Of a DNA stretch of 64,000 nucleotides, positions 1-10,182 are shown piece by piece. Position numbers and translations under genes: made by a program. The first letter of the stretch is position 1. The number at the start of each line of letters is the position of its first letter. The notes beneath the pieces were generated by a model. That model saw nothing but the letters and a program-made list of their open reading frames with translations. It did not search any database and was not told the origin of the DNA. Source of the stretch: an uncultured Anaerolineales bacterium (GTDB lineage Bacteria > Chloroflexota > Anaerolineae > CG2-30-64-16); contig CAZTMA010000002.1 in NCBI GenBank assembly GCA_964614645.1, positions 19,119 through 83,118 of the forward strand. Reading direction: 5' to 3'.

Positions 1-1195
1 CTGGTTCTGGCCGCTGCAGGATATCAACTTTGCCATCCAGCGCGGGGAGAGCGTGGGCATCCTGGGCGAGAATGGCTCCGGCAAGAGCACGCTGCTCAAG
101 CTGATTGCGGGCATCCTCGAACCGACCCACGGCACGATCGAGGTCCACGGCCGGATTGCCGCGCTCCTCGAACTGGGCGCCGGCTTTCACCCGGACCTGA
201 CCGGCCGGGAGAACATCTACCTCAACGGCTCCATCCTGGGACTCGGCCGCCACGAAATCAACGGCTACATCGACCAGATTATCGAGTTCGCGAGCATCGG
301 TGAGTTCATCGACGTGCCGGTCAAGCTCTACTCGTCGGGCATGCGCGTCCGGCTCGGCTTCTCCATCGCAGCCTTCGTCAAGCCGGACATCATGCTGGTG
401 GACGAAGTGCTCGCGGTGGGCGATGAGGACTTCCAGCACAAGTGCGTGCTCGTGTTTCACGACTTCCGGCGGCGGGGCGGCACGCTCATCCTGGTCTCCC
501 ACAGCGTGGAGCTGGTGCGCGACATGTGCCGCCGCACCATCTGGCTCGATGACGGGCGGATTCAGTCAGACGGCGCGACCTCGGATGTCATCGCGCACTA
601 CATGCGCAGCGTCTACAAGAAGGAACAGGAGCGGTTTGCGGAGCAGGACCGCCGGGCCAAGGCTGCTGAAGCAGGCCCGCCGGATAAGTCACGGCCGGGC
701 AAGGACGCGGCAGGCAAAGCCGCCGCGACCGCCGCGGCTCCGTCGAACGACCCGGATCGCTGGGGCGATGGCGCGGTGCAGTTCGACAAGGTGCGCCTGC
801 TCGACGGCGCCGGCCAGCCCAGTGAATTCTGCTACACCGGCGACCCCCTGACCATCGAGGCCGATTACACGGTGCAGCGGCCGATCAGCGAGACGCCGAT
901 TGTCGGCTTCGCGTTCATCCGGCACGACGGCATCTGGTCTTTCGGCACCAACACCGAGATCGAATCCATTCCGGCTGAGCACATGTGCGCGCCGGGCCAC
1001 ACGCATGGCACAGTCGTCGTCACGATTCCTGCGCTGACCCTGCTGCCGGGCACCTACACCTTGGATCTCGCCCTCCAGAAGGCGACGGGCGGCGACCACG
1101 ACTACCGCCGCAGCTGCGCGCGACTGACGGTCGGCTCCCTCAAGCGCGACGTCGGGGTGGCACGCATCGAGCACCGCTGGGCCTTCCGGGACTGA
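1..1195 (+). CDS. Polysaccharide/O-antigen-type ABC exporter ATP-binding protein (Wzt/TagH-like), 5' end cut by window edge, with extra C-terminal beta-rich putative glycan-binding domain
   Basis: Reading frame open from base 2 (WFWPLQDINFAIQRGESVGILGENGSGKSTLLK = Walker A). Signature-like YSSGMRVRLGF, Walker B IMLVDEVLAVGD, H-loop LVSHS. After an Ala/Lys/Pro-rich linker there is a ~170-aa extra domain (WGDGAVQFDKVRLLD...), as in Wzt proteins with a C-terminal carbohydrate-binding module. Confidence 0.85.
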   Translation, partial: WFWPLQDINFAIQRGESVGILGENGSGKSTLLKLIAGILEPTHGTIEVHGRIAALLELGAGFHPDLTGRENIYLNGSILGLGRHEINGYIDQIIEFASIGEFIDVPVKLYSSGMRVRLGFSIAAFVKPDIMLVDEVLAVGDEDFQHKCVLVFHDFRRRGGTLILVSHSVELVRDMCRRTIWLDDGRIQSDGATSDVIAHYMRSVYKKEQERFAEQDRRAKAAEAGPPDKSRPGKDAAGKAAATAAAPSNDPDRWGDGAVQFDKVRLLDGAGQPSEFCYTGDPLTIEADYTVQRPISETPIVGFAFIRHDGIWSFGTNTEIESIPAEHMCAPGHTHGTVVVTIPALTLLPGTYTLDLALQKATGGDHDYRRSCARLTVGSLKRDVGVARIEHRWAFRD

Positions 1196-1206
1196 AGTGA
1201 CGGCCT

Positions 1207-8779: not shown

Positions 8780-10182
8780 TGCCCCGCGCGCGTGTGCTGG
8801 CTGAAGGCTGGGATGTCCGGTCGGCCCTGGGGCTGCACACGGAGGCGCTGGCCCGCGTGCTCGACGGTTTGGGCTGGGAGGTCAGCGTGGCCTTGCAGAA
8901 CCCGCGCGGCGTGCCCGCCGCGTGGCGCAGCCGTCTGGCACGCACACCCGGCCCGGCCGAGCTGACCATCCTGCAATATCCCATCTGGTTCCCGCTGGCC
9001 GAAACCCTGCATGAGGCAAGCGGTGCGACGCTCTTCTGGTACCACGGCGTCACCCCACCCGAGATGTGGAGCAGTGCAGAGGATCGCGACCTGCTGGTGC
9101 GCTCCGTGGCAGGCACGGAGTTGGCCTGGCACGCCCACCTGGCAGTCTGCGACAGTCCATACATCGCCGGCGAGCTCCGGCGCTACACCGGCTATCCAGG
9201 GGAGCGCGTGCGCATCGTGCCTCTGGGCGTGGATGGGGCGCGGTTCGCGGCTGCGCCGCCCGCGGCTGAGCTGGAGCGGCTGCGCAGCCGGTGGCATCTC
9301 ACCGGCCGCCGGGTGCTCCTCTATGTCGGGCGCATCGCGGGCAACAAGCGCGTGGACCTGCTGATTGAAGCGCTCGCGAGGCTGGCCGGCCCCCATCCCG
9401 ACCTGCACCTGCTGGTGGTCGGCGACACGAGCAGCCTGCCCGCCTACCGTGACCTCACCGCGCAGCTGCAGCGCCTGGCCGCAGACCGCGGGGTAGCAGA
9501 CCGCGTCACGTTCGCGGGCCGCGTCGACGACCTGTGGCCGGTCTATCACCTGGCCGGCGCGTTGGTGACGGCCTCGCAGCACGAAGGGTTCGGCGTCCCC
9601 CTGGTCGAAGCCATGGCCGCGGGCGTGCCCGTGGTAGCGAGCGCGAGCGCCGCGCTGCCGTGGGTGCTGGGTGCGCCGGACGAGCCGGCCGGGCTGCTGT
9701 TCCCGCCCGGTGATGCCGCCGCGCTGGCGGAGTGCGTCGCGCAGGTGCTGGATGACGGCGAGTTGCGCCGGGTGCTGGTCGAGCGGGGCCGCGCCCGGGC
9801 GCAGGATTTCAGTCTCGCTGCCTTCAGCGCCAACACGGCGCGCGTGCTGGCCGAAGTCGTGGAGTTCGGCCGGGAAACAGCGCGGCCGGTCTCGCCCGTC
9901 ACGCACAGCCCGCTGTACCGGCAGGCGGATGTCGCGCTGCGCGACTACCGCGTGCGTTCCGGCCTGCCCATCATCGGGCCGCTGGTTGCCTGGTTGCGGC
10001 GCAACAGCACATCGCACGTCAAAGAGGCCTACCTGGACCGCATCGTGGAGCAGCAGGTGCTGTTCAACCGGCAACTGGTCGCAGAGATTGAGCGGCTCAA
10101 CACGCGGCTGCAGCGGCTGGAGGGTGCGCCGTCCCCCGGCCCGGCAGACGACGCACCCCCGGCCATAGCGGATGAAGATTGA
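8779..10182 (+). CDS. Glycosyltransferase family 4 with C-terminal amphipathic motif and short coiled coil
   Basis: ATG 8779 preceded by GGGAGG and overlapping the upstream TGA. LLYVGRIAGNKRVDLL, HEGFGVPLVEAMAAGVPVV. C-terminal YRVRSGLPIIGPLVAWLRRNSTSHVKEAYLDRIVEQQVLFNRQLVAEIERLNTRLQRLE is paralogous to the linker of the preceding gene. Confidence 0.85.
   Translation: MPRARVLAEGWDVRSALGLHTEALARVLDGLGWEVSVALQNPRGVPAAWRSRLARTPGPAELTILQYPIWFPLAETLHEASGATLFWYHGVTPPEMWSSAEDRDLLVRSVAGTELAWHAHLAVCDSPYIAGELRRYTGYPGERVRIVPLGVDGARFAAAPPAAELERLRSRWHLTGRRVLLYVGRIAGNKRVDLLIEALARLAGPHPDLHLLVVGDTSSLPAYRDLTAQLQRLAADRGVADRVTFAGRVDDLWPVYHLAGALVTASQHEGFGVPLVEAMAAGVPVVASASAALPWVLGAPDEPAGLLFPPGDAAALAECVAQVLDDGELRRVLVERGRARAQDFSLAAFSANTARVLAEVVEFGRETARPVSPVTHSPLYRQADVALRDYRVRSGLPIIGPLVAWLRRNSTSHVKEAYLDRIVEQQVLFNRQLVAEIERLNTRLQRLEGAPSPGPADDAPPAIADED

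Follow-up and report, generated by a model that had tools for sequence, protein, structure and literature searches.

How is the length of a surface glycan set when the glycosyltransferase (GT) that may build it and the methyltransferase that may cap it lie on one polypeptide? This question is raised by a 64,000-nt stretch of DNA (the window) from an uncultured Anaerolineales bacterium of the phylum Chloroflexota (assembly GCA_964614645.1, contig CAZTMA010000002.1, here C2, positions 19119-83118). To our knowledge, what is understood of how coiled-coil terminators control chain length comes almost wholly from enterobacterial O antigens. An operon at the start of the window encodes a glycan exporter, a membrane protein and four glycosyltransferases of family GT4, the third of which (open reading frame 5, ORF5) continues through a predicted coiled coil into a methyltransferase. 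From the sequence and its relatives, we consider it rather probable that this is an operon for ABC-transporter-dependent glycan assembly that follows the cap-and-export logic of Escherichia coli O9a and Klebsiella pneumoniae O3, O7 and O12. We favour this reading because all of the components lie in one coupled operon and because a long heptad helix carries the methyltransferase at its far end. The initial annotation of the window, made from the letters alone, had proposed the same logic, and comparative evidence has since strengthened it, namely a stand-alone terminator-like module after wzt, a separate methyltransferase gene in some relatives and a spacer of variable length.

We found that the operon runs wzm, wzt (with a Wzt_C domain), a gene for an 877-amino-acid (aa) membrane protein of predicted GT-C fold, and four GT4 genes, GT4_a, GT4_b, ORF5 and ORF6 (Table 1), in a single translationally coupled unit. 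The initial annotation had named a nearby Wzm partner as a check on its proposal, and an ABC2_membrane permease is indeed encoded directly upstream of wzt; it lies outside the window, just upstream of its start, within the 19 kb of upstream DNA that we examined. That the four GT4 genes overlap at their starts and stops, as had been noticed, is borne out by Pfam and by the junction sequences. After an 11-nt gap between wzt and the 877-aa gene, the overlaps down the operon measure 17 nt (between the ATG of GT4_a at 3824 and the stop of the 877-aa gene), 4 nt (ATGA, 5137-5140, GT4_a/GT4_b), 11 nt (6365-6375, GT4_b/ORF5) and 1 nt (in TGATG, 8777-8781, ORF5/ORF6). For GT4_a the ATG is the preferred start, and a TTG at 3812 is also open. 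Genome-wide counts given here refer to a 5.26-Mb assembly that is 94% complete and has a G+C content of about 70%; in it, the sole copies of Wzm, of Wzt_C and of the conserved motif described below are those of this locus. The gene order is identical in Chloroflexi bacterium ADurb.Bin325, where the proteins are 73-91% identical, and more distant relatives of the cluster are found in metagenome-assembled genomes of Caldilineales, Caldilineaceae, Anaerolineales and Chloroflexales. Orthologues of GT4_a in clusters from Caldilineae and Anaerolineae share 38-45% identity with it.

Does the exporter carry the kind of module that could recognize a capped chain? The window cuts off the 5' end of wzt, which in full spans C2:18964-20313, starts 155 nt upstream of the window and encodes 449 aa. 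The protein had been described as a Wzt-like ATPase with an extra C-terminal domain, and Pfam agrees on both parts, with an ABC_tran ATPase domain (E 5e-22) and a C-terminal domain that is a genuine Wzt_C (E 1.2e-23), aligned over positions 3-142 of the 143 in the profile; its score is 84.1 bits, where the cut-off is 30.4. A C-terminal domain unrelated to carbohydrate-binding modules had been named as a second refutation of the initial proposal, which thus passes this check too. The closest solved relative of Wzt in a PDB search is the Aquifex WzmWzt O-antigen transporter (8dku/7k2t, E 5e-61). Because the isolated Wzt_C domain gives only a weak pairwise match in the PDB, to the Aquifex carbohydrate-binding domain (E 0.18), its membership of the family is drawn from the Pfam profile.

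Is ORF5 a fusion of a glycosyltransferase, a coil and a methyltransferase? We examined this 804-aa protein with Pfam and with an AlphaFold model of the monomer, built with 22 family members. The N-terminal GT4 domain is followed by a disordered linker, a short helix, a single long helix, a loose linker and, at the C terminus, the class I S-adenosylmethionine (SAM) methyltransferase that had already been recognized from the letters (Table 1). The EX7E motif is intact in the GT4 domains of both ORF5 and ORF6, and in ORF5 (E282...E290) both glutamates are invariant in the family alignment. The D-x-G-C-G-x-G SAM loop of the methyltransferase is likewise intact; this domain matches PDB entry 3dli (E 3.6e-34 over residues 588-803 with phmmer; 32% identity; Foldseek TM-score 0.82). 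Neither Pfam nor NCBIfam scans returned a kinase family for ORF5. The heptad-like segment of about 70 residues that had been noted after the third GT4 is, in the model, a helix of 79 residues. Its register, with hydrophobic residues in the a and d positions, is constant over residues 482-552, and its hydrophobicity spectrum peaks at 3.5 residues with a value reached by 18 of 1000 shuffled sequences. This periodicity and the constant register lead us to regard the heptad segment as real. The modelled helix is a candidate heptad-repeat coiled coil, which would measure about 12 nm if straight, as calculated from its 79 residues.

The GT4 domain of ORF5 has the fold of an ordinary retaining GT4, with MshA, ManT, BshA and WaaG matched at E 1e-16 to 1e-18 (Foldseek). 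One of these many matches, the methylmannose-polysaccharide mannosyltransferase ManT (7qsg, E 6e-17), suggests an alternative in which the methyltransferase decorates internal sugars and so yields a polymethylated polysaccharide, comparable to the mycobacterial methylmannose polysaccharide. The helix would then be an oligomerisation or spacer element only, and chain length would be set by other means, for instance by the stoichiometry of polymerase and exporter. We judge this alternative to be unlikely. The ManT match is generic, with MshA, BshA and WaaG scoring equally well, and a decorating enzyme would be expected beside the active site of the glycosyltransferase, not 79 helical residues away from it.

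The initial annotation had also described a second GT-coil paralogue. ORF6 is a true paralogue of ORF5, with 37% identity over 500 residues (BLASTP, E 1e-69) that extends through the GT4 domain, the linker and a conserved motif and is strongest in that motif; the part of the description that did not hold is the coil, which is short. The ORF6 motif (nt 9946-10068) is followed by a helix that continues to about nt 10122, only about 30 residues, after which the protein ends. We considered whether this tail is nevertheless a long coiled coil and do not call it one, because its heptad periodicity is not significant (349 of 1000 shuffles).

What do ORF5 and ORF6 share at the base of their helices? 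The motif, about 40 residues long, reads Y.VRS.(L/K)P..G.LI.WVRRN.TSH.KEPY.D.I..RQ..FN. in ORF5 and, in the form common to ORF5 and ORF6, Y.VRS..P..G.L..W.RRN.TSH.KE.Y.D.I..QQ..FN. In the alignment of 22 family members, the invariant columns are Y444, R447, S448, R461, T465, H467, L468, E470, Y472, D474, R479, Q480 and N484. Nothing in Pfam matched this region significantly at E <= 5. Within this genome only ORF5 and ORF6 carry the motif, and stand-alone methyltransferases of other genomes carry it as well. We infer by analogy that the motif is the membrane-proximal base of the coil and that ORF5 and ORF6 are two polymerase modules, because the motif has a short hydrophobic helix followed by basic residues, because WbdD has a comparable end that binds the membrane and recruits the polymerase, and because both GT4 paralogues carry it.

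How widespread is the fusion, and do its parts also occur separately? A search of 5.8 billion proteins returned about 35 metagenomic clusters with the full layout of GT4, motif, coil and methyltransferase, and hundreds of proteins of about 500-570 aa with GT4, motif and coil only. Of 61 relatives, those with the fused form are the four species of the window's genus, without exception, and a single further genome of the class; a set of 300 genomes drawn evenly from the whole phylum had none. The fusion is thus rare, and its spread is patchy, as surface-glycan loci typically are. An exhaustive HMMER search showed that stand-alone proteins of about 420 aa are abundant; in these, a short N-terminal extension precedes the motif, coil and methyltransferase, and the match to ORF5 begins only at the motif. 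In one locus (L095), such a protein (P0193) is encoded directly after wzm and a wzt with Wzt_C, and the genes that directly follow it are those of a 760-aa double GT4 and of three more GT4s. By analogy, this layout mirrors E. coli O9a with P0193 in the place of WbdD. Three clusters from Caldilineae and Anaerolineae (L011, L013 and L016) encode the same four GT4s in the same order, including both motif-bearing ones, at 38-57% identity, and have the methyltransferase homologue as a separate 306-aa gene directly after wzt. In L016, a PIG-V-like GT-C mannosyltransferase and a GT2 are encoded between the methyltransferase and the GT4 genes (L016:4097-6723).

Across Chloroflexota we found the motif in 25 loci, nine of which have two motif genes, and all 12 motif-bearing loci whose retrieved DNA includes wzt encode a Wzt_C. 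In 22 aligned orthologues, whose catalytic domains align without gaps, 87 to 186 residues separate the motif from the methyltransferase; this spacer reaches about 300-330 residues in the metagenomic relatives P0030 (1004 aa) and P0025 (1388 aa). Variation in spacer length from 87 to about 330 residues between conserved catalytic domains is what would be expected of a molecular ruler. P0025 is a single chain in which an N-terminal orthologue of GT4_b (38% identity over 412 aa, E 3e-97) precedes an ORF5-type series of GT4, motif, coil and methyltransferase. This Rosetta-stone fusion links GT4_b with the ORF5 GT4 and the methyltransferase as parts of one machine.

These relatives also bear on whether ORF5 might be a self-contained capping enzyme, whose GT4 adds a special terminal sugar that its methyltransferase then methylates, while GT4_a, GT4_b and ORF6 alone polymerise the chain. 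Glycosyltransferases that act as terminators do exist, as in WbbB (GT99) and O4 ORF7 (GT137) (PMC11231755), and four to five GT4s would be left for the rest of the chain. We nevertheless regard this as quite improbable. In most relatives the ORF5-type GT4 is present without any methyltransferase, and ORF6, a close paralogue with the same motif, lacks one too; P0025 joins the ORF5-type GT4 to a GT4_b orthologue in the manner of a multi-module polymerase; and the GT4 and the methyltransferase of ORF5 lie at opposite ends of the helix, an awkward placement for consecutive reactions on one terminus.

How, then, would cap and export proceed in the reading that we favour? A phosphoglycosyl transferase whose gene lies elsewhere in the genome would make a lipid-linked primer, which the cytoplasmic GT4 enzymes would lengthen, with GT4_a and GT4_b probably serving as adaptor or polymerase modules. 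ORF5 and ORF6 would act as paired, coil-bearing polymerase modules, kept at the membrane or in a complex by their shared 40-residue motif. The 79-residue coil of ORF5 would project the 3dli-type methyltransferase about 12 nm away from the polymerase, where it would cap those chains that had grown long enough, and this methylation would end elongation. The Wzt_C module would then bind the capped end, and Wzm/Wzt would export the polymer. The data show the domain layout, the structure of the operon, the homologies, the gene order in relatives and the variation in coil length; from these we infer what the substrate and the cap chemistry would be, that the coil acts as a ruler, how the proteins would oligomerise and what becomes of the glycan after export.

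Several observations weigh against cap-and-export. The operon holds no gene for an initiating phosphoglycosyl transferase, WecA-type enzymes not having been searched for, and no sugar-nucleotide genes; the genome has five Bac_transf genes, all on contigs other than the operon's. Lipopolysaccharide (LPS) is not known from Chloroflexota of this kind. The coil was predicted on a monomer and with moderate confidence (pLDDT 63-73), and the fusion of a methyltransferase to a glycosyltransferase does not by itself prove a ruler function. Finally, among the closest-relative clusters, the 306-aa methyltransferase (L016) has no coil, so a coil on the methyltransferase is not obligatory. This last point also suits the methylation of internal sugars, as does the gene next to wzm, which encodes a secreted protein with glycoside-hydrolase-like NE and SEYG motifs that recalls the hydrolase of the methylmannose pathway. 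However, strict co-occurrence with a Wzt that bears a carbohydrate-binding module (CBM) and a variable coil length are traits of terminators.

Has such an arrangement been characterised before? Among the nearest counterparts are two K. pneumoniae proteins that have been characterised experimentally, O7 ORF6 (methyltransferase-kinase, CBM, coiled coil, GT2, GT2) and O12 WbbB (a GT99 terminator followed by a coiled coil and two polymerase GTs) (PMC11231755), which we compared with ORF5 through their description in that paper. Like these proteins, ORF5 joins a probable polymerase GT and a probable chain terminator through a coiled coil in one polypeptide, with GT and terminator on opposite sides of the coil, and it does so within a Wzm/Wzt operon whose Wzt bears a CBM. 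Unlike them, it has the reverse order, with the GT N-terminal and the terminator C-terminal, where the known order is terminator, coil, GT; its GT is a GT4 rather than a GT2 or GT1; its methyltransferase is of the 3dli type without a kinase, and the conserved 40-residue motif caps the coil; and its host belongs to Chloroflexota, whereas theirs is a proteobacterium with LPS.

The WbdD/WbdA systems of E. coli O9a/O8 and K. pneumoniae O3/O5 follow the logic proposed here, with GT4 polymerase modules, a methyl or phospho-methyl cap, a coiled-coil ruler and a cap-recognizing Wzt CBM. They differ in that WbdD is not fused to a GT and has N-terminal catalytic domains and a C-terminal membrane anchor, and ORF5 lacks the kinase domain of the O9a/O3-type WbdD. 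We asked whether ORF5 could be a member of the WbdD family and rejected this. The profile of the motif-coil-methyltransferase family matches 3dli at E 3.5e-94 and WbdD (4uw0, 4azw, 4ax8) at E 0.004-0.01 over a 39-residue SAM loop only; the polarity is reversed (motif, coil, C-terminal methyltransferase), and no kinase is present. The methyltransferase of ORF5 is instead a true full-length homologue of 3dli, from Archaeoglobus fulgidus, including the SAM loop and a C-terminal F-Y-K-D-x-T-H-x-x-P-x-H-P block. Unlike ORF5, 3dli is a stand-alone domain of 240 aa without motif, coil or GT, an uncharacterised structural genomics entry.

WsaE of Geobacillus stearothermophilus NRS 2004/3a has an N-terminal methyltransferase followed by two rhamnosyltransferase domains and acts in the synthesis of an S-layer glycan (PMC2943079). 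Compared by this published domain order alone, it resembles ORF5 in the fusion of methyltransferase and GT domains, in its Wzm/Wzt-dependent pathway in a bacterium without LPS, and in the methyl cap proposed to end the chain; unlike ORF5, it is described without mention of a coiled coil (PMC2943079). Also close are the uncharacterised stand-alone motif-coil-methyltransferase proteins (about 420 aa) and GT4-motif-coil proteins (about 500-570 aa) of Chloroflexota, which belong to the same families and lie in the same wzm-wzt(Wzt_C) neighbourhood. They keep the two activities on separate polypeptides, whereas ORF5 is a fusion of the two. The earlier statement that this arrangement was not known to have been characterised holds for the exact order and the domain families; it does not hold for such fusions in general, as WbbB and O7 ORF6 (PMC11231755) and WsaE (PMC2943079) had already been characterised. 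Altogether, the locus presents in another arrangement a mechanism that Klebsiella and E. coli already use, and it is not a new kind of system.

A bolder proposal, which we put forward tentatively and think less likely than not to hold in full, is that the motif, in which a hydrophobic P..G.LI.WV helix precedes RRN.TSH.KEPY.D...RQ..FN, is a dedicated anchor or assembly module at the membrane-proximal foot of the coil. It would let GT4 polymerase subunits and 3dli-type methyltransferases from separate genes join in a single heteromeric coiled coil, so that ORF5 and ORF6 together would make up a machine of polymerase, ruler and terminator, representing a ruler that evolved independently, is widespread in Chloroflexota and other phyla, and builds a capped glycan of defined length without LPS. 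Independent evolution is suggested because the polarity (base N-terminal, terminator C-terminal) and the methyltransferase family both differ from those of WbdD. As candidates for the same architecture outside the phylum, loci of Proteobacteria, Firmicutes and Acidobacteria were rejected, their apparent full-length matches having the methyltransferase upstream of the GT4.

What does the 877-aa protein between exporter and GT4 genes do? It has about 11 hydrophobic segments and matched nothing in Pfam and NCBIfam scans, with nothing significant in Pfam even at E <= 5; a profile of its family likewise had no match among PDB sequences at E <= 1. It has five close homologues, and weak, distant ones carry PMT_2. 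The GT-C membrane enzyme of the initial annotation finds support in the fold of the AlphaFold model (pTM 0.75), whose top 16 PDB matches are all GT-C enzymes (Foldseek, E 1.6e-6 to 5e-4), with AglB best (1.6e-6), followed by DPY19, ALG12/9, AftD, ArnT, PglB, Pmt4 and AftA, at TM-scores that are low (0.24-0.39 on the query). An invariant aspartate, D152, lies in a GGRDPG loop after an early transmembrane (TM) helix. The last roughly 100 residues resemble CBM6-type beta-sandwiches (Foldseek). This C-terminal beta domain recurs (E 2e-7) in an 873-aa membrane protein of the Caldilineaceae cluster L016, which is encoded between the two motif-bearing GT4s and has only this domain in common with the 877-aa protein. 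We also considered whether the 877-aa protein is a paralogue of a TMEM260-like GT-C encoded nearby, and concluded that it is not, because the hhalign probability is 1.9%.

The GT-C protein had been suggested to transfer the finished glycan en bloc to protein or lipid outside the membrane. This is no better supported than a role in which the protein takes single sugars from a polyprenyl-phosphate-sugar donor and attaches them to the exported glycan or to an extracytoplasmic protein (three-component or Emb/Aft/ArnT type); to this role we give slightly less than an even chance. Consistent with single-sugar addition, distant homologues carry PMT_2, the Foldseek matches include ArnT, DPY19, ALG9/12, AftA/AftD and Pmt4, and the C-terminal beta domain is CBM6-like, as in GT-Cs that act on polysaccharides. 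In addition, the same strand has a gene for an ArnC/DPMS/GtrB-like GT2 (E 5e-12) 18 kb upstream, and six Wzy_C and four LCP genes, candidate ligases, lie elsewhere in the genome, away from the operon; this GT2 in the island together with ligase candidates elsewhere makes single-sugar addition at least as likely as en bloc transfer. Yet the best Foldseek match is an oligosaccharyltransferase, AglB, and PglB is matched as well, all at the low TM-scores given above; the GT2 may belong to a separate Wzx-type cluster; and neither Pfam, NCBIfam nor the PDB profile search gave a match. The analogy to a Geobacillus membrane oligosaccharyltransferase that had been drawn is a loose one: WsaB, the partner transferase of WsaE, is a Wzy_C protein (PMC2943079), whereas the 877-aa protein appears to be a PMT_2-like GT-C with a CBM6-like C terminus.

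If our reading holds, the locus would represent the same terminator logic in Chloroflexota, assembled from unrelated parts and with reverse polarity. Current understanding is not overturned by it. Nature offers a series in which the parts are separate, fused in twos or fused in threes and the coil spacers measure about 90 to about 330 residues (P0025 and P0030 included); this series would suit a test of the ruler model, and the locus offers a candidate conserved anchor or assembly motif and an entry point to the almost unknown cell-surface glycans of Chloroflexota.

Table 1. Features of the operon and its surroundings. Plain positions count from the first letter of the window; L009 positions are those of upstream genes and equal C2 coordinates.
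Feature	Position	Strand	Basis or remark
478-aa secreted protein, Ser/Thr/Ala-rich, beta-rich	L009:10768-12204	-	many N-x-S/T and S/T runs; near TMEM260/PMT_2-like GT-C
412-aa secreted protein, signal peptide	L009:16783-18021 (C2:16783-18021)	+	just upstream of wzm, outside window
wzm, ABC-2 permease, 286 aa	L009:18102-18962	+	ABC2_membrane E 2e-14; ends 1 nt before wzt
wzt, ATPase of glycan ABC exporter	1..1195	+	ABC_tran, Wzt_C; 5'-truncated by window
Wzt_C carbohydrate-binding module	755..1165	+	Pfam PF14524, fragment residues 252-388
877-aa polytopic membrane protein, predicted GT-C fold, C-terminal beta-sandwich (CBM6-like)	1207..3840	+	AlphaFold, Foldseek
GT4_a glycosyltransferase	3824..5140	+	Pfam Glyco_trans_1_4 E 3e-30, Glyco_transf_4
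GT4_b glycosyltransferase	5137..6375	+	Pfam
ORF5, third GT4, 804 aa	6365-8779	+	Pfam, AlphaFold
ORF5 GT4 domain, GT-B fold, aa 1-390	6365..7534	+	Pfam; AlphaFold pLDDT mostly above 85
ORF5 disordered Pro/Ala-rich linker	aa 393-450		AlphaFold
ORF5 conserved motif at coil base, aa 444-484	7694..7816	+	alignment of 22 family members
ORF5 short helix	aa 451-464		AlphaFold
ORF5 single uninterrupted 79-residue helix, aa 474-552	7784..8020	+	AlphaFold secondary structure; heptad register
ORF5 loose linker	aa 553-583		AlphaFold
ORF5 class I SAM-dependent methyltransferase, Rossmann, aa 584-804	8114..8776	+	Pfam Methyltransf_11/23/25; AlphaFold, confident
ORF6, GT4 paralogue of ORF5, without methyltransferase	8779..10182	+	Pfam; BLASTP
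Inverted repeats, three GC-rich near-palindromes (GCGGAGTCCGC cores)	10202..10259	.	sequence read; between convergent ORF6 and LTD gene

The operon does not stand alone: the region of about 29 kb as a whole is a surface-glycan island. The 18 kb upstream of the operon hold a second glycan block, in the order GT2, two GT4, pyruvyl transferase, GT4, sulfatase, Wzx-like flippase, TylF-type methyltransferase, secreted Ser/Thr-rich protein, sulfotransferase, GT4, TMEM260/PMT_2-like GT-C and secreted 412-aa protein. The GT2 at the 5' end of the island is the ArnC/DPMS/GtrB-like enzyme. The stretch L009:1193-9848 and 9826-13624, with this GT2, three GT4 genes, the pyruvyl transferase, sulfatase, flippase, TylF-type methyltransferase and sulfotransferase, looks Wzx-dependent, and its gene content suggests a pyruvylated and/or sulfated polysaccharide.

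Two secreted proteins of the island returned nothing significant from Pfam at E <= 5. The 412-aa protein, which also has no PDB match, contains the sequences LIGNEMD and VSEYG, which look like the motifs of the acid/base and the nucleophile in the glycoside hydrolase clan GH-A, and a homologue is encoded beside wzt in two related clusters (51% identity in L011, 42% in L032). It may be a glycan-trimming hydrolase; because the PDB search was empty, this assignment derives from the NE and SEYG motifs alone, read by eye. The 478-aa protein is a candidate glycoprotein or S-layer-like acceptor.

Downstream of ORF6, the inverted repeats listed in Table 1 are likely to be the terminator of the operon, and look bidirectional though unusually repeated. 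The convergent gene beyond them (10364-11647, minus strand) encodes a secreted Lamin-Tail-Domain (LTD) protein (Pfam LTD, E 1e-11) that carries a TM helix at its C terminus as well as a basic tail. It is followed at 11672-14871 by genes for a SulP-STAS-rhodanese fusion transporter and then glpX, which appear unrelated to the glycan operon.

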